Shown: piece after piece, positions 26,805 to 50,297 of the stretch
Layout of the letters: each line of letters opens with the position of its first letter
Numbering within the stretch: the first letter of the stretch is position 1
Assembly (NCBI GenBank): GCA_050262655.1
Contig: JBLNEM010000509.1
Location: 794 to 64,793, forward strand
Direction of reading: 5' to 3'
Source of the DNA: Mycobacterium leprae
GTDB lineage: Bacteria; Bacillota; Sulfobacillia; Symbiobacteriales; Symbiobacteriaceae
DNA length: 64,000 nucleotides
Translations under genes and position numbers: made by a program
The notes under the pieces: generated by a model
What the model was told of the DNA's origin: nothing
Databases searched by the model: none
What the model saw: the letters and a program-made list of their open reading frames with translations, nothing else

Positions 26805-26914
26805 GTACATAAGGTTAGGACCTAAACGACTCCAACTTACCATTATGCATCAGATTCTTGACCCGGCAGCACAATTCGCGCCGCGGGGCGCAGGGACGAC
26901 GAAGCAAGACGGTT

Positions 26915-26930
26915 TGTGAGATTGCTCACA
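26915..26930. promoter_or_regulatory. Perfect CRP/FNR-family palindrome TGTGA-N6-TCACA
   Basis: TGTGAGATTGCTCACA is centred about 64 bp upstream of the ATG at 26987. It is the only such box I found in the window. Confidence 0.6.
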
Positions 26931-26986
26931 TAAGCGGCGTCAATCCATTACCCAATAGCAGCCTTAAGGTGGAGGAGGGCACCGGA

Positions 26987-27727
26987 ATGAACCTGAAACG
27001 ACCCGCCCGTAGAAGCTTAACGGCACTCCTCGGCGGGATCCTCCTGGTAGTGGTCGGGCTGGCGGTTAACGCACAGACGGCTGCAGCGGAGACAATTGAC
27101 AAGCAACTGGCGAACCCGTCCGATCCGGACGGGAATGCGGCGTGTCTGGCGTGTCACAGCCAGGCGCAGGAGATGGTCCGGGACGGCAATCACATATCGG
27201 TGCAGGTCGATCCGAACACTTACAACAACTCGGTACATGGCATCATCTCTTGTGTTCGATGCCATGCCGAGGTGGGCGAGGATCACGCCAAGAACCCCGC
27301 CAAACCTCTGAATCTGCCCACCGGACGAGACCTCAGGGTTCTCAAGTCTGAGGGGTGCATCAAGTGCCATGGGGGCAAGTACCCAGAAAGCTACAATCTC
27401 AGTTTCCATGGCGTCGCCGTCAGCAGCGGCGATAACCGTGCCGCTACTTGCGTGGACTGCCATGGCGTACACAACATTCTACCGTCACGCAACCCGGCGT
27501 CGCAGGTAGCGTCGGCCAATCTGGCGCAAACGTGCGGCACGACTGGGTGCCACCAGAATGTGCCGGCCAACTTTGCGAACGGCACGGAGCATTTTGTGGC
27601 GGCCAAACCTGAGGCCGGCGGCCTCAATATCATCTACAAGTTGTTTATGGGGCTGATCTGCTTCGACGCCATGAAGGATGGGCCGATTGTTATGTTCGAC
27701 CTGCTCAGGCGTCTGCGTCGGCACTAG
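26987..27727 (+). CDS. Exported pentahaem c-type cytochrome (cytochrome c3-like)
   Basis: The ATG at 26987 follows AAGGTGGAGGAGG. Signal/anchor MNLKRPARRSLTALLGGILLVVVGLAVNAQTAAA. Haem motifs are CLACH, CVRCH, CIKCH, CVDCH plus the CX4CH motif CGTTGCH. It ends in a hydrophobic/amphipathic C-terminus. Confidence 0.85.
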   Translation: MNLKRPARRSLTALLGGILLVVVGLAVNAQTAAAETIDKQLANPSDPDGNAACLACHSQAQEMVRDGNHISVQVDPNTYNNSVHGIISCVRCHAEVGEDHAKNPAKPLNLPTGRDLRVLKSEGCIKCHGGKYPESYNLSFHGVAVSSGDNRAATCVDCHGVHNILPSRNPASQVASANLAQTCGTTGCHQNVPANFANGTEHFVAAKPEAGGLNIIYKLFMGLICFDAMKDGPIVMFDLLRRLRRH

Positions 27728-27740
27728 GGGGTGTAGTGAA

Positions 27741-28580
27741 GTGAGTAATAACAAAGCGGTTTATTACCAGCGATGGAATCTGCAGCACCGCCTGCAGCAT
27801 ATCTCCCTGGTGATTTCGATGATCGGGCTGCTCTGGACTGGCATGGCAATGAAGTTCTATACCGAAGCCTGGGCTAAAGGGACCTTCCGGATCTTCACGG
27901 GCTTCCATGGCACACTGATTGTGCACAAGATTTCGGCCGCCCTGCTAATCCTGGTCTCTGTCTGGCATCTGTCTTACCTGCTCACCTACCTGGCCAAACA
28001 CGGCGTGAAGGAGGCAGGGCCCAGGAGTTGGGCTATGCTCCCGGGTTTGAAGGACTTCATTGACGCCAAGGACCATGCGTTATACCTGCTCAAGCTCTCG
28101 GACAAGCCGCCGCAATATGACCGCTACAGCTACCTTGAGAAGTTCGAATACCTGTCGATTTTCTGGGGCATGGCGGCGATGGGGCTCTCCGGTGCTGCAT
28201 TGTGGTTCCCCGAGGTGGCAGCCCAGTGGATTCCCCGCTCCTGGCTGGATGGGCTAAGGCTCATTCACACCAACGAGGCGCTGGTCGCCTTGATCGCTCT
28301 CGCCTATGGCCATCTGTTTACGGCTCACTTCAACCCAATCTTCTTCCCACAGAACTCCATGTATTTGACTGGCAAGATCTCGCTGGAACACATGCTGGAG
28401 GAGCATCCCGCTGAATATGCACGCCTGGCAAGCAAGGGCGACCTGCCCGCTATGGCCGGCAGCAGTCACGAGCATGGACTGACGGGCTGGCGGTGGGGGC
28501 TGGGTGCCGTTGAGCTGATCATCTACTCGGCAGTGTTCTACTACCTGTTGTACACGTTCATTCCGAAACTACTGGCATAA
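27741..28580 (+). CDS. Membrane di-haem cytochrome b (FdnI/HydC, Ni_hydr_CYTB-like)
   Basis: The GTG at 27741 follows AGGGGGTG. The sequence YQRWNLQHRLQHISLVISMIGLLWTGMAM leads four to five TM helices with conserved His residues (HKISAALL, SVWHLSY, LIHTNEA). Confidence 0.8.
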   Translation: MSNNKAVYYQRWNLQHRLQHISLVISMIGLLWTGMAMKFYTEAWAKGTFRIFTGFHGTLIVHKISAALLILVSVWHLSYLLTYLAKHGVKEAGPRSWAMLPGLKDFIDAKDHALYLLKLSDKPPQYDRYSYLEKFEYLSIFWGMAAMGLSGAALWFPEVAAQWIPRSWLDGLRLIHTNEALVALIALAYGHLFTAHFNPIFFPQNSMYLTGKISLEHMLEEHPAEYARLASKGDLPAMAGSSHEHGLTGWRWGLGAVELIIYSAVFYYLLYTFIPKLLA

Positions 28581-28593
28581 GGGGGGAGGCTCC

Positions 28594-30456
28594 TTGAAGC
28601 GCAAGATTAACTGGGCAATTCCGGGCCTCCTGGGCATCGTGCTGTTTATCGCCGCCATGGTGTTCATGCAGCGAGGCGCTACTGCTCTGACCAACCCGAC
28701 GGCCGCCGCATCGGAGTGTGCGGCATGCCACAACATGGAGCAGCAGGTATCCTCCTGGGAGCATTCGGCTCACAAGGATGCTGCTTGCACCACTTGTCAT
28801 ACTGACCCCGGCGTAAAGGGCTGGTTGGAGGTTAAGCTGGGCGAGCGCCAGATGAAGGCAGCCCTGGATAAGGGCTCTGCCGAGGGGCAAGTCACAGCCA
28901 TCACCAAGGAAGTGCCCAACGAACGCTGCATCTCCTGCCACGCCAAGCAGATGCCTTGGGTCATGCAGGACTTACAGCCGCCCAAACTTGATGGCAATGG
29001 CGAGCCCGTCCGGGTGGCCAACTCAGCGTTGGAGTTCCTGCCTGGCATTGCCGGACACGATGTACACCTGACCGCAGAGCAGCCGCTGAAGTGCGTGGAT
29101 TGCCACTTCGATGCTACCCATGGTCCGGCTGACAAGGCGCAGCAGGTGGCCGATATGCACCAGGCCTGCCTGGACTGCCACGCCAAGGAGAAAGTGGCGC
29201 TAACGGTCAAGAATACGGTTTCGTGCTCTGCCTGCCATAACGACTTGGCGAAGGTAGCCCCGGATGATCATAAGAACAATGCCTTCCGGGAGAGCCACGG
29301 CAAGATTGCTGCGACCCAGCCGGAGACCTGCCAGAACTGCCATCTCAACCCCGGCCTTGGGGCCAAGGCAGCAGACAGTGGCACCACAGTTCATCCGGTC
29401 GTTCAAACAACCGTCTCCGGAGCAGCGGAAAGCCAGGTTCAGTTCAATGTTCAGTTCCCGCCTGGAACGCTTAACGTGCCGCCGGACATGACGGACGCAT
29501 GTGCTTCGTGCCACGGCACGACCATGCCGCACCCGAAGGACTGGCTGAAGGACCACGCGACGGGTTATCAGGAGAAACCGGAGATGTGTGCCTCCTGCCA
29601 CGGCACCACAACCCAGGGCTTCGATATGAAGGTGACGGGCAACCCCCGCACCCTCTCCACCACCGATCCTACCTGTACGAGCTGTCATGCGCAACCGATG
29701 CCTCACCCGGCCGATTGGCTGACGGGTGGACACCAGAACGCGGCTACGGCTGCACCGCAGACTTGTGACCAGTGCCACTCGGCCAAGAACCCGGCTCATC
29801 CGAATGCCGATTATGCATCGCCGCAATACTGCCTGAACTGCCACCTGGGCAAGTACAGTCATCCGCTGAACTGGCTCGACCAGCACCGGTTCTCGCTGCA
29901 GTCCTATGGCGGTGACCAGACGAAGGCCGGCTGCACGCAGTGTCACACGGCGACCACCAACAGTTGCACGTCCTGCCATACCAACGGTGTCGGCAACCAG
30001 CAGCAGTGGCATCCCAGCGACTTCGTCGCCACCCACAAGGATCAACTGGCTTCGTACGGGGACAACCCAACGGCAGCCGGCTGCACCAGTTGCCACACGG
30101 TGACCGGCAGTGGGTTCAACAGCTGCGTCACTTGCCACACCAACGGGATTGAAAGCAAAGAATGGCATCCGGCGGAGTTCATCGCCACGCACAAGGACCA
30201 GTTGGCAGCCGTGAATGATGACCCGCAGGCTGCTGGCTGCACCAAGTGCCACACGACCAGCAACACGGCCAAGACCAGCTTCAACAGCTGCACGGCCTGC
30301 CACACCGATGGTCTGAATGTGGCCACGCAGTGGCATCCGGATAATTGGTGGATCGCTCACGCCTACCAGGTGAACGATAGCAACAAGGCCAGCTGCTACT
30401 CCTGCCACGACTACGTCCAGCCTGCCTGCACGAAGTGCCATGTTAACAAGCCGTAG
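28594..30456 (+). CDS. Membrane-anchored 20-haem c-type cytochrome with a NapC/NirT/NrfH-like N-terminal module
   Basis: One N-terminal TM helix. The first motif, CAACHNM, is the CxxCHxM hallmark of the NrfH/NapC family. I counted 20 CxxCH motifs in 620 aa. Confidence 0.9.
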   Translation: MKRKINWAIPGLLGIVLFIAAMVFMQRGATALTNPTAAASECAACHNMEQQVSSWEHSAHKDAACTTCHTDPGVKGWLEVKLGERQMKAALDKGSAEGQVTAITKEVPNERCISCHAKQMPWVMQDLQPPKLDGNGEPVRVANSALEFLPGIAGHDVHLTAEQPLKCVDCHFDATHGPADKAQQVADMHQACLDCHAKEKVALTVKNTVSCSACHNDLAKVAPDDHKNNAFRESHGKIAATQPETCQNCHLNPGLGAKAADSGTTVHPVVQTTVSGAAESQVQFNVQFPPGTLNVPPDMTDACASCHGTTMPHPKDWLKDHATGYQEKPEMCASCHGTTTQGFDMKVTGNPRTLSTTDPTCTSCHAQPMPHPADWLTGGHQNAATAAPQTCDQCHSAKNPAHPNADYASPQYCLNCHLGKYSHPLNWLDQHRFSLQSYGGDQTKAGCTQCHTATTNSCTSCHTNGVGNQQQWHPSDFVATHKDQLASYGDNPTAAGCTSCHTVTGSGFNSCVTCHTNGIESKEWHPAEFIATHKDQLAAVNDDPQAAGCTKCHTTSNTAKTSFNSCTACHTDGLNVATQWHPDNWWIAHAYQVNDSNKASCYSCHDYVQPACTKCHVNKP

Positions 30457-37030: not shown

Positions 37031-37042
37031 AAACCAAAAGAC

Positions 37043-37076
37043 AAGAACGCCCCCGCATGTGTGCGGGGGCGTTCTT
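37043..37076. terminator. Bidirectional intrinsic terminator (pdh operon / ImmA-like gene)
   Basis: AAGAACGCCCCCGCA-tgtg-TGCGGGGGCGTTCTT. Confidence 0.8.
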
Positions 37077-37632
37077 ATCGGCGTGCGAGCCTCAGGCCCT
37101 CCAAACGGATCTCCATGGCCTGTGGCGAGACATTGAAGTGTTTCACCAATGCGGATACCTTTCCGCCGGTTACCCGATGCATGGCACGTACCGCTGGTTC
37201 GGGCATGAGCAGTGCACCGGCAAAGAGGTTTGCCTCCCACTCTTGTTGGGTGTGAAGCTTGCGCTCGTCTGGTACGACCGCTGTGCCGCGGATTTCCATG
37301 TCACCGGTGGTACAGACAAAAAGCGTGCTGGAGTTGGCGGACTGTCGGCAATGGAGCACGTAGTGGCCGATCTCGTGGGCAATGGAGAATCGCTGCCGAT
37401 GATCGTGGTGGTTCGACTCGACCGCGATCAAGTGCGACGAAGCGTCGAGAAAACCCGCGTAGGAACGTTCGCCAATCTGCAGGTCTGCCACACGTTGGAC
37501 CCCTAGACCGAACAGCAGGCCAGCCACCAACTCAACGTCGATGCGGTAATGGTCCCAGGGCTCGCCCAGAGCGGTTACCTCTTCACAGGCTACCAGGAGT
37601 ACCCGCTCGGCCTCTTGTTCGGCAGGCCTCAA
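37075..37632 (-). CDS. ImmA/IrrE-family (M78) zinc metalloprotease
   Basis: FSIAHEIGHYVLH (HExxH) and EWEANLFAGALLMPEPAV. Confidence 0.8.
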   Translation of the reverse strand: MRPAEQEAERVLLVACEEVTALGEPWDHYRIDVELVAGLLFGLGVQRVADLQIGERSYAGFLDASSHLIAVESNHHDHRQRFSIAHEIGHYVLHCRQSANSSTLFVCTTGDMEIRGTAVVPDERKLHTQQEWEANLFAGALLMPEPAVRAMHRVTGGKVSALVKHFNVSPQAMEIRLEGLRLARR

Positions 37633-38240
37633 TCTGGATCACACCTTCTCGGGTTGTCCGGTGGTTTGCGACTAGCGGAACGGACCTTCTCCAGGAGAGC
37701 CTGACGTTCGGCCTCCGTGCTGGTCTCCTTGTCGCGGGTAAAGACCATGCCGGATTGCATACTGTTGAGCGCATTCAGCGAGAGAAGCCGGCGGACCTCT
37801 TTCAGCAGGGCGCTGAAGGGGGCCGAAACCTTGGCTGCCAACTGCCGGACAGCAGCATTATCCGACAGGGTTTCAGTTGGAGTCCCGGCACGGGACAACT
37901 GTTCCAGGCTGTCGACCGGCAGACCCGAGCGGCGGGCCTGCTCCTCGATGGAGAGGCCGGACACGACTCGGTCCTGTGTGAACAGGTCGCCAATGGTTGC
38001 GGCAGAGGTTGCAGAACGGGGTACCAACTCCGCATGCAGCTTCAGCGCAAAGGTGTGGCTTGCGAATTCCGCCTGGCGCCACCGTTTCTCGTTATCGAGT
38101 TCCAGAATGACCGGAATCAGCTCTTCCAGTTCGGCGGTGTACTCGGGGTAAGTGGCGAGCACTGTGGCAACGCCCTGCTGATCGGACCGTTCAAGGCACG
38201 CCTGCAATTCTGCAACCACGGATTCGATAGGCCTGGTCAT
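37629..38240 (-). CDS. Soluble XRE-type HTH protein (ImmR-like / possible anti-sigma factor)
   Basis: Central HTH IGDLFTQDRVVSGLSIEEQARRSGLPVDSLEQLSRAG and no TM segment. It has 4-nt overlaps with both neighbouring genes. Confidence 0.6.
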   Translation of the reverse strand: MTRPIESVVAELQACLERSDQQGVATVLATYPEYTAELEELIPVILELDNEKRWRQAEFASHTFALKLHAELVPRSATSAATIGDLFTQDRVVSGLSIEEQARRSGLPVDSLEQLSRAGTPTETLSDNAAVRQLAAKVSAPFSALLKEVRRLLSLNALNSMQSGMVFTRDKETSTEAERQALLEKVRSASRKPPDNPRRCDPD

Positions 38241-38878
38241 GCTTCGCTACCCCCTCCGCCAAAGCGCAGAGCCAGAAGCTGGCGCTTCAATTCTTTTAGG
38301 CCCCGATAGTAATAATTTTCCACGCGTTTCTCCACGTTGCCGTCGTCTGCAACCAGCCCTTCTGCCAGGAGCAGGTTGGCTGTCTCCCGGTTTGAACGTC
38401 CCTCGAACTGGCGAGCCTGAATGACGATTCGGTAATGATCGGGGATCTGTTCCAGTGCAAGGTGCAGCAACTGCTCTTCTTCCGTTCGGATGGTTTCAGC
38501 CAGGGGGTCCATGGTGTGACCGACCTGCCGTTCGAGCAGGGAGCTGCTGTCCGGGTCGCTGGCGGCAACCGGGGCGTCAAGGGTGGCGTCTTCTTTGCTG
38601 CGGCCCTTTTTCCGTAGTTCGTCGATCAGGCGACGACGGAGCAGGGTCCAGAACAGAGCGGAGAACTGCTGTGCGGGTTCACGCTGTAGGGCGGTGACCA
38701 CTGCGAGCCACAAGTTCTGCATGATGTCCTGGGCGAGAAACGGGTCGCTAACTTGGCCGCGCAAATAGCGCATGCCCTTTCCGTGGTACCGGTCAACCAG
38801 TTCCGCCCATGCGGCATCTTCCCCCTGCAGGGCGGCTTGCAACAAGGCGTCATCGGTCCAGGAGGCGAACTGCCCCAA
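38237..38878 (-). CDS. Sigma-70 family (ECF-like, regions 2 and 4) RNA polymerase sigma factor
   Basis: Region 2: ELVDRYHGKGMRYLRGQVSDPFLAQDIMQNLWLAV. Region 4: IPDHYRIVIQARQFEGRSNRETANLL...YYYRGLKELKRQL. TTG start 9 nt after AGGAGG. Confidence 0.8.
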   Translation of the reverse strand: MGQFASWTDDALLQAALQGEDAAWAELVDRYHGKGMRYLRGQVSDPFLAQDIMQNLWLAVVTALQREPAQQFSALFWTLLRRRLIDELRKKGRSKEDATLDAPVAASDPDSSSLLERQVGHTMDPLAETIRTEEEQLLHLALEQIPDHYRIVIQARQFEGRSNRETANLLLAEGLVADDGNVEKRVENYYYRGLKELKRQLLALRFGGGGSEA

Positions 38879-38926: not shown

Positions 38927-39412
38927 TCACCAACCGGCTTTATCGGTGCCCGGCAGCGCGTATGCCCGCCAGATAGCATGAAGCAAGTCGTCGCGGGAGA
39001 CGATGCCGACCAGCACGCCGCCCTCCGACACCACGGGCACACGTTTAATCCGGTAGTCTACCATGAGTCCGGCCACATCTACCACGTCATCATCTAGGTG
39101 GCACGTAATCACGTTTTTCGTACATATGCTCATGACAGGTTCGTCCAGCATCCGCTGAAACCGTTCCCGTACGCCGTCTTCTTCATCCTGGATCACCACG
39201 GCGAAGGTCAGGAAATCGATGGCCCGCGGATGGTGTCTGCGGCCTCGACGGAGCAGGTCTGCGTAGGTGATGATCCCTACCACCTGATTCGTGTCATCAA
39301 CCACCGGAAGGCCGTCAATCCTGTGATCCATCATGACGCGCAATGCATCGGCCACCTTGGTTTCAGGCCGGACCCGTACTACTCCGGAGTTCATGACGCT
39401 TTGAATATCCAT
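38927..39412 (-). CDS. CBS-pair domain protein
   Basis: Two CBS motifs (VADALRVMMDHRIDGLPVVDD..QVVGIITYADLL and VVDVAGLMVDYRIKRVPVVSEGGVLVGIVSRDDLL). Confidence 0.8.
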   Translation of the reverse strand: MDIQSVMNSGVVRVRPETKVADALRVMMDHRIDGLPVVDDTNQVVGIITYADLLRRGRRHHPRAIDFLTFAVVIQDEEDGVRERFQRMLDEPVMSICTKNVITCHLDDDVVDVAGLMVDYRIKRVPVVSEGGVLVGIVSRDDLLHAIWRAYALPGTDKAGW

Positions 39413-39564
39413 GAGCTCGCCTCCCGTCAGAGGAGTTGAGCGATATTTCTTCGTCCCACCCTTAACATCCTGTCAAGCACTTTCACTACTTTGGTTTTGC
39501 GCCTTCTACACAATTCTCGTATACTCAGGGGTGAAGCCTGTTGCAGGGATACGGGGGGAGAGCC

Positions 39565-48485: not shown

Positions 48486-50297
48486 GTGAAGGGGAACAAG
48501 TGGTGGAACGTGGACCTTTTCAGCAAAAGGGCGCTGCAGGCTCGAATTATACTGACTCTGGTACTCGTAGTGCTGGCGGCCCTCTATGGCGTTGCTTTAA
48601 CGGGCCGTCCCTCCAGCTTATGGGCAGCACAGGGTGTAGGGCTCAGCATCGTATTGTTGGCCGGTATCCTGACCGGGTGGTGGGGGCGGAGTCTACTAGG
48701 GCTCGTGCGCTACGGCGAGGGGAAGGAAGCCGCCGCCCACGAAGAAAGAAGCCGCATCTTGGAGCAGAAGAACCGCCAACTGCAGACCACGCTGCAGGCG
48801 TTTAAGGCGATCTCCTCGGCGTTGGACCTGAAGGAGGTAGGGGCCCTGGCGGTTGAACAGGTGATTAACTATACGCCGTTCAAGAAAGCATCTTTGATTC
48901 TGGGCCCGGATGAGCGAGGCGAATTTCAGGTTGCCGGGTCACGCGGGTTGTCGCCGGAGTACCTGCATCAGTTTTTGGGGGCCCTGAAGGGGCCGGGAAA
49001 GGCCTCATCCCCAATCGAGTGGTGTCAACTGACGCGCCAACCCGTTGTGGTGGACAATGTGGCCCGGGACTTCCGGACAGCGGGGCTCAGTGATCTGTAT
49101 ACCAAAGCTAACCTGGAAGGGCTTATCACCGTTCCCCTGGTTGTACAGGATCAGTTCCGTGGCGCCCTCACGGTATACACGGAACAGGGAACGCACTTGA
49201 CTACGGCCGAGATTTCAATGGTATCGGCACTGGCTAGCCAGTCAGCAGTTGCGCTTGAAAACGCACGACAGTATACACTCACCGTACAGAACCGAGAGCG
49301 CATGGACATGGCTTTGCAGTGTTTGCAGGGGGTTGCTTCGGCACTTACGCGTATGCGGGTGGGTGTTTCGCCCTTACTGCACTTGGTTGCGCAGGCGGCT
49401 GCCAACCTTTTTGCCCCGGCACGCATTCGGCTGACGGTCTCCAAGGCAACGCGTTATCCCGCTATGGTGGTGACGGAAGCCGTAAACATGTGCGAGCAGG
49501 ACGAGGGGACGCTTTCGTTCTCGCTCCCTATTCTGCTGGACGGCGAGTCCTATGGTCGGCTGGACCTGGTGCTGCCTGGCGCTGGCCGCAACCTTGAAGC
49601 CGGGGAGGTGCAGATCCTTCAGGCATTCGCCTATTTAACCGCTTCCGCTCTGGGGAATGCGGCGTTGGTTTCGGAGATGCGTCAGGCGGTAGAGGCGGTC
49701 GAGAAGTCGTACATAGGAACGCTGGAAGCACTCAGCAAGGCACTGGAAATTCGTGATCACGAAACCGTTGGCCATAGCAGGCGGGTGGTGCAGTATACCC
49801 TGGCCCTCGCTCAGCGATTGCGGGTGCCTGAAGGTGAGTTAATCCCCATCATGCGGGGGGCCCTTCTGCACGACGTGGGCAAAATCGGCATACCGGACGC
49901 CATTCTTCGCAAACCGGCCCCGCTGACCGAAGCGGAATGGGCCATCATGAAGGAGCATCCTCGGATCGGTTATGAGATGCTGCGACAGATCGATTTCCTC
50001 ACCCTGGCAGCCCCGATCATCCTGCATCACCATGAACGGTTTGACGGTAGGGGCTACCCCGGGGGACTGGCGGGCGATGACATCCCGCTGGGGGCCCGGA
50101 TCTTTGCGGTGGCCGACACGTATGACGCGATCACTTCCGACCGTCCCTATCGCAAGGGGCGCTCCCACGAACACGCGGTCAGCGAGGTGGTAGCCGCCCG
50201 CGGATCCCAGTTCGACCCTCAAGTGGTGGAGGCGTTCATGTCACTGCCTGATGAGGAACTGAGTCGGATTCGTAGTGGCGACGGCTCCACCGGTTAG
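48486..50297 (+). CDS. Membrane-anchored GAF-GAF-HD-GYP protein (putative c-di-GMP phosphodiesterase)
   Basis: Two N-terminal TM helices and two GAF-like regions. HD-GYP domain: HSRRV...LLHDVGKIGIPD...HHERFDGRGYPGGL...ADTYDAITSDRPYR. Confidence 0.85.
   Translation: MKGNKWWNVDLFSKRALQARIILTLVLVVLAALYGVALTGRPSSLWAAQGVGLSIVLLAGILTGWWGRSLLGLVRYGEGKEAAAHEERSRILEQKNRQLQTTLQAFKAISSALDLKEVGALAVEQVINYTPFKKASLILGPDERGEFQVAGSRGLSPEYLHQFLGALKGPGKASSPIEWCQLTRQPVVVDNVARDFRTAGLSDLYTKANLEGLITVPLVVQDQFRGALTVYTEQGTHLTTAEISMVSALASQSAVALENARQYTLTVQNRERMDMALQCLQGVASALTRMRVGVSPLLHLVAQAAANLFAPARIRLTVSKATRYPAMVVTEAVNMCEQDEGTLSFSLPILLDGESYGRLDLVLPGAGRNLEAGEVQILQAFAYLTASALGNAALVSEMRQAVEAVEKSYIGTLEALSKALEIRDHETVGHSRRVVQYTLALAQRLRVPEGELIPIMRGALLHDVGKIGIPDAILRKPAPLTEAEWAIMKEHPRIGYEMLRQIDFLTLAAPIILHHHERFDGRGYPGGLAGDDIPLGARIFAVADTYDAITSDRPYRKGRSHEHAVSEVVAARGSQFDPQVVEAFMSLPDEELSRIRSGDGSTG

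Follow-up and report, generated by a model that had tools for sequence, protein, structure and literature searches.

In the ImmR/ImmA, DdrO/IrrE(PprI) and CapH/CapP systems, the gene of an M78 metalloprotease with an HExxH...E active site follows that of a protein with the XRE fold and two C-terminal helices. CapP cuts CapH at F82|R83, in the first helix of the C-terminal dimerisation domain, and the R83A variant is uncleavable (Lau et al. 2022); in DdrO, IrrE cuts the C-terminal dimerisation domain (PMC12828697). Lau et al. (2022) also recorded, without explanation, 24 loci of cyclic-oligonucleotide-based anti-phage signalling systems (CBASS) in which capH and capP are accompanied by a sigma-70-family gene, for example in Bradyrhizobium sp. 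WSM1417 (IMG 2507506251), so that a sigma factor beside an XRE/M78 pair has, as a bare co-occurrence, been seen before. The listed modes of control of extracytoplasmic function (ECF) sigma factors comprise membrane-bound and soluble anti-sigma factors, regulated intramembrane proteolysis (RIP), partner switching, Ser/Thr phosphorylation, terminal extensions and two-component systems (PMC8103513, PMC7826278). M78 proteolysis is not among the modes given in the ECF classification and reviews (PMC8103513, PMC7826278), and our literature search found no paper linking ECF sigma factors to ImmA, M78 or COG2856. Here we describe a 64-kb stretch of contig JBLNEM010000509.1 (the window), which carries the XRE/M78 arrangement in a cassette of three genes that encode an ECF-type sigma factor, a 203-aa middle protein (the partner) and an ImmA-like protease. 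Sigma factors of the ECF type, M78 proteases and XRE-like substrates are each already known. What is new is that the substrate-like protein is translationally coupled to the sigma factor in a cassette conserved in a housekeeping context and is fused with a module that otherwise occurs only in kinases coupled to ECF factors.

The initial annotation had placed three minus-strand genes here, overlapping by 4 nt at each junction (38237-38240 and 37629-37632), and its coordinates and overlaps were all correct. The genes and the protein segments on which the argument depends are as follows.

38878..38237, minus strand: sigma, an ECF-type sigma-70 family factor of 213 aa
38240..37629, minus strand: partner (middle protein), 203 aa, ATG start
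37632..37075, minus strand: protease, an ImmA-like M78 zinc metalloprotease of 185 aa, TTG start
38025..38240, minus strand: partner residues 1-72, three-helix N-terminal module (H5-17, H21-30, H32-72)
37821..37997, minus strand: partner residues 82-140, XRE/cI-like five-helix helix-turn-helix (HTH) fold, acidic
37632..37820, minus strand: partner residues 141-203, two C-terminal helices with a low-confidence loop between them (AlphaFold, alignments)
37731..37745, minus strand: V-F-T-R-D motif of the partner, residues 166-170, candidate M78 cleavage site
37363..37377, minus strand: HEIGH active-site motif of the protease (sequence and alignment)

A specific link of the partner to sigma factors is supported, at the level of sequence, by its N-terminal module. 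Positions ~4-57 of the partner profile also match N-terminal extensions of Hanks Ser/Thr kinases among 1.84 billion representative proteins, and the motif LDVxAFxxAHPEHAxELRELLPxLL is common to both kinds of N-terminus. In the kinase examples P0057, P0068 and P0073, the Pkinase domain starts ~20 residues past the module (Pfam scan). We traced 20 kinase-type loci, two from genomes (one of them a Planctomycetota metagenome-assembled genome, MAG) and 18 from metagenomes, and searched them for upstream sigma frames with a hidden Markov model (HMM) of the sigma factors of the window family. All 20 carry an ECF-sigma-like frame that overlaps the module open reading frame (ORF) or lies 0-170 nt upstream of it, with HMM E-values between 3e-13 and 8e-5, and the two genome-derived kinase-linked sigma factors match TIGR02984 best (7e-49 and 6e-35) and, like the window sigma, over its full length. 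The link of the partner to sigma factors is drawn because, elsewhere, the module forms the N-terminus of kinases whose genes invariably follow directly on an ECF sigma gene. The module is therefore best described as a putative sigma-coupling device, which the sequences place here on an ImmR-like protease substrate and not on a kinase, and it probably contacts the sigma factor.

The kinase-linked ECF systems (ECF43, ECF59-62, ECF217; EcfP/PknT, EcfK/PknS) thus resemble the window locus in two respects, a sigma factor in or near a TIGR02984-like clade and a downstream gene that begins with the same N-terminal helical module, and differ from it in that the window locus has no kinase domain and carries an XRE-like body and an M78 protease instead. 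In the kinase-linked groups the kinase activates the sigma factor by phosphorylating the position that replaces the DAED motif (PMC8103513), and groups ECF43, 59-62, 217, 267 and 283 typically have no anti-sigma factor (PMC7826278). Most kinase-linked sigma factors in our set (L012-L031; loci are numbered from L001 onward) carry D-P-S-D or S-A-S-D, with a phosphorylatable Ser, where a canonical ECF factor has DAED. This sigma-2.2 position reads LAQD in the window sigma and LAQD or LAED in its family, unlike the mostly phosphorylatable D-P-S-D of the kinase-linked factors. A further kinase-type case, the 21st, is L036, in which the module frame has a 4-nt overlap with an ECF sigma frame. There (L036:3546-4739), the called ORFs are short, with 152 aa for sigma, 90 aa for the module and 149 aa for the kinase, and an ordinary sigma-kinase pair has probably been frameshifted in the assembly.

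Modelled alone, the module folds with high confidence (predicted local distance difference test, pLDDT, 91.5). Fold searches returned no structural relative, the best E-values being 4.8 in the PDB and 1.9 in the BFVD viral library. We also considered the module as a divergent zinc-less anti-sigma domain, an idea that is unsupported, these same searches having given nothing meaningful. The partner has no HxxxCxxC zinc motif, and no Cys/His motif is visible in its sequence.

The cassette is conserved well beyond the window. The partner family comprises 33 clusters in a word-indexed search of 5.8 billion proteins and only ~10 clusters at E<1e-10 in an exhaustive profile search of the 1.84 billion representatives. 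We examined nine contexts of the core family, all in Bacillota. Sigma and partner occur together, with the 4-nt overlap, in every one of the nine, and an M78 gene directly follows the partner in seven. Most core loci occupy the same chromosomal site as the window cassette, between the pyruvate dehydrogenase (PDH) operon and genes for a response regulator, a histidine kinase and HtrA; in L011 the upstream neighbours differ from those of the other core loci. We followed three divergent partners (22-31% identity) back to the contigs that encode them. In L032, an ECF sigma gene, the partner and an M78 gene overlap and adjoin Fpg and a phosphorylase. In L033, a 275-aa ECF-like sigma factor (TIGR02937 3.4e-10, full length) precedes the partner and an M78 protein with an extra HTH. 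In L034, a 232-aa upstream protein overlaps the partner gene by 4 nt, and the partner is followed by an M78 protein fused to Metallophos and by an SbcC-like ATPase. The triad thus recurs as a unit in the seven core contexts and in L032, L033 and L034, and its recurrence in unrelated neighbourhoods leads us to regard it, with considerable confidence, as a functional unit. Searches of 50,697 phage and 72,556 plasmid records turned up no relative of the partner.

Two side observations concern these loci. In L034 (L034:1856-6206), the M78-Metallophos fusion is 614 aa long, its Metallophos domain is SbcD/Mre11-like, and genes for DUF4258 and Multi_ubiq proteins lie nearby, together a hint of some connection with DNA damage or defence. 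In addition, each of the eight other core loci encodes, after the cassette and on the same strand, a member of a conserved family of 110-129-aa proteins with no Pfam hit, and tblastn found no copy of it in the window. This protein may be a fourth cassette member or a regulon target. Its positions are given below.

L001:6719-7108, 110-129-aa family
L003:7341-7721, 110-129-aa family
L005:7252-7641, 110-129-aa family
L007:6654-7001, 110-129-aa family
L008:7308-7652, 110-129-aa family
L009:7300-7632, 110-129-aa family
L010:7292-7651, 110-129-aa family
L011:7228-7581, 110-129-aa family

The first gene of the cassette was originally read as an ECF-like sigma factor, an assignment borne out by NCBIfam and Pfam. 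TIGR02937 (ECF) matches at 9e-16 (57.9 bits against a cut-off of 42.9) and Sigma70_r2 at 2.4e-8 (34.1 bits against a gathering threshold, GA, of 24), while Sigma70_r4_2 (2.3e-5, 24.4 bits) falls slightly under its GA of 25.7. What lowers this last score is an insertion of ~9 aa in the turn of the region 4.2 HTH. The insertion, LAEGLVADDGNVEKR (window 38324-38368, sigma residues ~171-185), is kept even in the distant L032 sigma factor in the family alignment. Scans with Pfam and NCBIfam gave no match to an r3 or r1 domain, so that the protein has the composition of an ECF (group 4) factor, sigma-2 and sigma-4 only in 213 aa; in all core loci it also has the co-transcribed regulator gene, directly downstream with an ATGA overlap, that is typical of this group. 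It aligns end to end with TIGR02984 (NCBIfam, 2e-13) and by this sequence comparison is related to that clade. Among the classified ECF groups, ECF130 and ECF201 are described as HTH-associated.

The start codon of sigma is a TTG 8 nt past AGGAGG, and its TTGGGG start is invariant across nine loci in the upstream alignment. The sigma/partner junction reads GCATGACC, and its ATGA overlap is found in every core locus and in L032, L034 and L036. The protease begins at a TTG within a 4-nt TTGA overlap in GATTGAGG, in agreement with the family alignment, which begins at the same position; elsewhere the partner/protease junction lies between -4 and +2 nt, apart from a called 35-nt overlap in L032. 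A translationally coupled, soluble regulator encoded downstream, in an operon that is probably autoregulated, is the arrangement of ECF sigma/anti-sigma pairs. Unlike the anti-sigma factors of such pairs (classes I-III of the anti-sigma domain, ASD), the partner has no ASD signature, no zinc-binding anti-sigma (ZAS) motif, no Pfam anti-sigma domain and no structural match to solved ASDs.

The partner as a whole gave zero matches in Pfam, NCBIfam (even at E<=1), PADLOC and PHROGs. Its AlphaFold model (pLDDT 85) joins the N-terminal module to an XRE-like domain through a variable Ala/Pro linker. Five of six matches in a PDB profile search are XRE/cI proteins, aligned over residues ~78-147 at weak E-values of 0.17-1.8. 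The top 50 Foldseek matches are mostly XRE domains, with SinR, C.BclI, ClgR, 434 Cro, DdrO, ImmR and CapH among the matches, at probabilities of at most 0.97, E-values of at least 0.14 and TM-scores, normalised to target length, of ~0.5; the high E-values arise because the partner model is multi-domain. Two distant relatives, P0044 and P0048, match HTH_31 below its GA. From these weak but convergent lines, the centre of the partner is predicted to fold like an XRE/cI HTH. The central XRE-type HTH that had been annotated in this protein is thus undetectable to Pfam and NCBIfam and nevertheless finds some support in PDB profiles and Foldseek. The same annotation had called the protein soluble and free of transmembrane segments, which agrees with a 19-residue Kyte-Doolittle maximum of 0.78 (at most 1.19 across the family).

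The body of the partner departs from ImmR, DdrO and CapH in several ways. It is preceded by an extra module of ~70 aa, common to the ECF-linked kinases; its gene overlaps an upstream sigma gene; and its HTH-like domain is acidic and outside the Pfam HTH models. Charge analysis gave a median pI of 5.1 for this domain across the family; the recognition-position helix, LPVDSLEQLSRA, is about -1 in net charge, with none of the usual basic or polar residues. On this sequence evidence classical operator binding appears doubtful, and the acidity of the domain favours a protein-binding role instead. With regard to setting, the cassette lies in housekeeping chromosome and not, like those of ImmR, DdrO and CapH, in an integrative and conjugative element (ICE), a phage or a defence operon; the distant L034 is the exception. 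The CapK/CapS pair was also considered as a related system and set aside as an unrelated GHKL/STAS system.

In the AlphaFold model the two C-terminal helices span residues 142-162 and 176-190, and the VFTRD motif lies in the loop between them. Five partner residues are invariant even when distant relatives are included in the alignments (P32, G84, G106, T120 and R169), and Arg169, in the motif VF(T/A)R(D/E), is the sole invariant residue of the C-terminal region. CapH and DdrO likewise have a conserved Arg in the C-terminal region, CapH being cut at F82|R83 and DdrO in its C-terminal dimerisation domain. By analogy with these two cleavages, Arg169 in VFTRD is a good candidate for the P1' residue of an M78 cut.

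The M78 ImmA/IrrE-family assignment of the third gene held firmly, with Peptidase_M78 (PF06114) matching at 2.1e-19 (70 bits against a GA of 22). The zinc site, HEIGH...EANLF, is intact, and H86, E87, H90 and E133 are invariant in all 10 aligned protease sequences. The best match in the defence libraries is PADLOC CapP (5.3e-22, positions 51-150 of 242); matches to phage metalloprotease families were also obtained. The protein consists of the core only, with neither a GAF nor an ssDNA-binding domain. We classify it as ImmA-like and not IrrE/CapP-like because it has 185 aa and matches only those CapP positions. In this it resembles the ImmA proteins of ICEBs1 and phage phi105, which are small and single-domain, and differs from IrrE and CapP, whose HTH-linker and GAF/ssDNA-sensing domains it lacks.

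The remaining features of the operon are the following.

38927..39412, minus strand: CBS-pair gene, 161 aa, two repeats (Pfam CBS 9.1e-32)
39446..39471, minus strand: promoter-like motif AGGAT-N15-AAGAAA, 34 nt upstream of the CBS start codon
38879..38926, minus strand: leader remnant and sigma ribosome-binding site (RBS), GTGAGGA...CGAC...TAGGAGGTC (upstream-region alignment and sequence)
37040..37079, minus strand: intrinsic terminator at the operon end, 18-bp stem with 11 G-C pairs and a T-run (terminator scan)

The family consensus of the promoter-like motif, AGGAY-N15-AAGAAW, occurs once in each other core locus, 70-95 nt upstream of sigma, and has one match in the whole window against 0.09 expected. 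The upstream block of all other core loci reads GACAGGACTC-N13-AAGAAT ... GTGAGGAG ... CCCC-GCGAC-GGGG ... AGGAGGTC-N8-TTG. Within it, between the promoter-like motif and the RBS (L001-L011, ~100 nt upstream of sigma), the leader blocks GTGAGGAG and CCCC...GCGAC...GGGGTAGGC are invariant. The CCCC and GGGG stretches are predicted to form a short hairpin, with essentially no covariation, and this element is absent from the window leader. There, the 48-nt gap between the CBS gene and sigma retains the remnants GTGAGGA, CGAC and TAGGAGGTC. With the promoter-like motif upstream of the CBS gene and leader remnants downstream of it, the CBS gene is lodged within the ancestral leader, so that the operon of this genome reads CBS-sigma-partner-protease. 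The terminator scan found one strong terminator after the protease stop and none on the minus strand from the CBS gene as far as the protease.

The CBS gene had been proposed as a possible operon member acting as a nucleotide or energy sensor. Its position 48 nt upstream, between the promoter-like motif and sigma, fits membership in this genome; as a conserved member of the family it fails. The only other core locus with a CBS gene is L005, where an orthologue (65% identical) lies upstream of sigma, outside the operon, set apart by an opposite-strand acetyltransferase. The CBS gene is a lineage-specific addition outside the module, and the idea of a conserved nucleotide sensor was rejected as a family feature and holds for this genome only.

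Within 15 kb on either side of the cassette all genes are housekeeping or metabolic, and no phage, ICE or integrase gene was found there, in line with what had been noted originally. The neighbours include the PDH E1/E2/E3 operon, an OmpR-type response regulator, a histidine kinase, HtrA and Lgt, together with multihaem cytochromes, a carboxyltransferase, PfkB, a GAF-HD protein and an M23 peptidase. The cytochrome cluster (window 26858-30456) encodes c-type multihaem proteins, one of them MtrC/MtrF-like and 620 aa long, as well as a cytochrome b561-like protein, and suggests that this organism carries out electron transfer of an extracellular or respiratory kind. The GAF-HD (HD_5) protein (window 48486-50297, 603 aa) lies ~10 kb from the cassette, to which it has no established tie, and is possibly a cyclic-nucleotide phosphodiesterase. 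The NCBI record of a protein identical to the partner reads 'MAG: hypothetical protein ACM3XM_19930 [Mycobacterium leprae]'. This taxon label appears wrong, given that all partner relatives come from Bacillota MAGs and that the gene content looks Bacillota-like.

Together, these features can be accommodated in a model in which three cytoplasmic components form a switch that controls an ECF-type sigma factor, with the CBS gene inserted in the leader. The model builds on the observed operon structure, cassette conservation, domain composition, intact active site and exclusive linkage of the module to ECF genes. The operon is transcribed from the family-conserved promoter-like AGGAY-N15-AAGAAW and stops at the strong terminator, and sigma and the 203-aa partner are co-produced from their overlapping genes. 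The partner is a chimera, in which the three-helix N-terminal module would contact sigma and the remainder, with its XRE-like domain and two C-terminal helices, has the build of ImmR, DdrO and CapH and would serve as substrate of the co-encoded M78 protease. The cut would most likely fall before Arg169, by analogy with F82|R83 of CapH. In the resting state the partner would keep sigma inactive in the manner of an anti-sigma factor. A cytoplasmic signal would then activate the protease, and cleavage would destabilise the partner, or lead to its degradation, and free sigma to drive its regulon and probably its own promoter. In known anti-sigma systems release proceeds by site-1/site-2 RIP, Clp or partner switching, unlike the M78 enzyme proposed here.

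Confidence differs among the parts of this model. That the protease cleaves the partner is, by analogy with the characterised pairs, reasonably likely, if slightly less so than the contact between module and sigma. That the partner is inhibitory and released by cleavage is a tentative proposal, to which we give somewhat less than an even chance. The model as a whole is likewise tentative, with a chance not far short of even. A broader generalisation is more speculative still and rather doubtful: that the ~60-residue module is a hitherto unrecognised, portable ECF-sigma-binding domain, borne by Hanks kinases of Planctomycetota and other phyla and by an M78 substrate, and that the triad represents a sixth, fully cytoplasmic mode of ECF control, in which ImmA-type proteolysis releases sigma from a non-ASD anti-sigma factor.

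Several points weigh against the model. The module bears no likeness to known anti-sigma domains in Pfam, NCBIfam, PDB profile or fold searches. In the kinase systems the module-bearing protein activates sigma by phosphorylation, so that contact need not mean inhibition (PMC8103513, PMC13147305). The protease has no recognisable sensor domain, its PADLOC CapP match being to the core only. L001/L002, from the complete 4.3-Mb genome GCA_054391835.1, and L007 keep sigma, partner and VFTRD with no adjacent protease; the partner of L007 is 82% identical to that of a protease-bearing genome, so that the missing proteases are secondary losses. Finally, the upstream protein of L034 is only marginally sigma-like, at E ~0.01 by three methods (hhalign against sigma, probability 3.6%, E 0.012). 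The initial annotation had itself inferred a cytoplasmic sigma/anti-sigma-like module released by ImmA-type proteolysis. That reading is partly supported: a conserved, non-mobile triad with a sigma-linked partner stands behind it, the two genomes that lack the protease and the non-conserved CBS gene weaken it, and profile searches of the middle protein (Pfam, NCBIfam, PDB), of the kind that it had proposed, returned no anti-sigma domain.

Three other explanations must be weighed. The partner could be a DNA-binding repressor of the CapH or ImmR type that the protease cuts on stress, with sigma as induced cargo and the module as an accessory for oligomerisation or for a non-inhibitory sigma contact. 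The partner-protease gene order is the same as that of immR-immA, the centre of the partner is XRE-like in fold, and the invariant leader blocks, including CCCC...GCGAC...GGGG, are a possible operator. Derepression is moreover the mode of all characterised XRE/M78 pairs, and capH and capP have a sigma-70-family gene beside them in the 24 loci of Lau et al. (2022). We nevertheless consider this explanation, the main rival, unlikely, for the HTH-like domain is acidic, with a recognition-position helix of charge about -1 devoid of the usual basic and polar residues, the partner matches no Pfam HTH model, the window leader lacks the conserved CCCC/GGGG element, and a module found otherwise only beside ECF sigma genes is left unexplained. 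A more distant prospect is that the partner is a positive adaptor, recruiting or stabilising sigma as in kinase docking, while the protease ends or tunes the response. Module-bearing kinases are indeed activators (PMC8103513, PMC13147305), and the two genomes that retain sigma and partner without the protease are compatible with such a role; no known XRE/M78 pair works in this way, however, and where translation of a sigma factor is tightly coupled to that of a downstream protein, the two typically form a sigma/anti-sigma pair (PMC8103513), so that we judge the adaptor improbable.

The HTH/M78 pair beside the sigma gene could also be merely a decaying mobile-element immunity module, a possibility raised from the outset, or a COG2856 toxin-antitoxin-like module, XRE/M78 pairs being common in prophages, ICEs and predicted toxin-antitoxin systems and the protease having matches among phage metalloprotease families. 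This explanation is very improbable. The cassette keeps its chromosomal syntenic site, from the PDH operon to the response regulator, histidine kinase and HtrA genes, in many genomes; the triad recurs in divergent lineages with invariant catalytic residues; and searches against phages, plasmids, PHROGs and PADLOC gave no match to the partner, with no integrase or phage genes within 15 kb on either side. The preferred reading is still that of a partner-held sigma factor released by the M78 protease, and the three soluble proteins, of ~200 aa each, are amenable to two-hybrid, cleavage and reporter assays.

If this reading is true, the cassette would provide a testable explanation of the sigma genes beside capH and capP in the 24 CBASS loci. 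It would also tell what the helical N-terminal extension of Hanks kinases coupled to ECF factors does, which the 2026 structure paper on PknS left unexplained: the 81 N-terminal residues of PknS are predicted to form 3-4 helices on a flexible linker, were invisible in the crystal and were assigned no function (PMC13147305). Within the family described here, the cassette would join two regulatory principles, the sequestration of sigma factors by anti-sigma factors and the cleavage of XRE repressors by M78 proteases.

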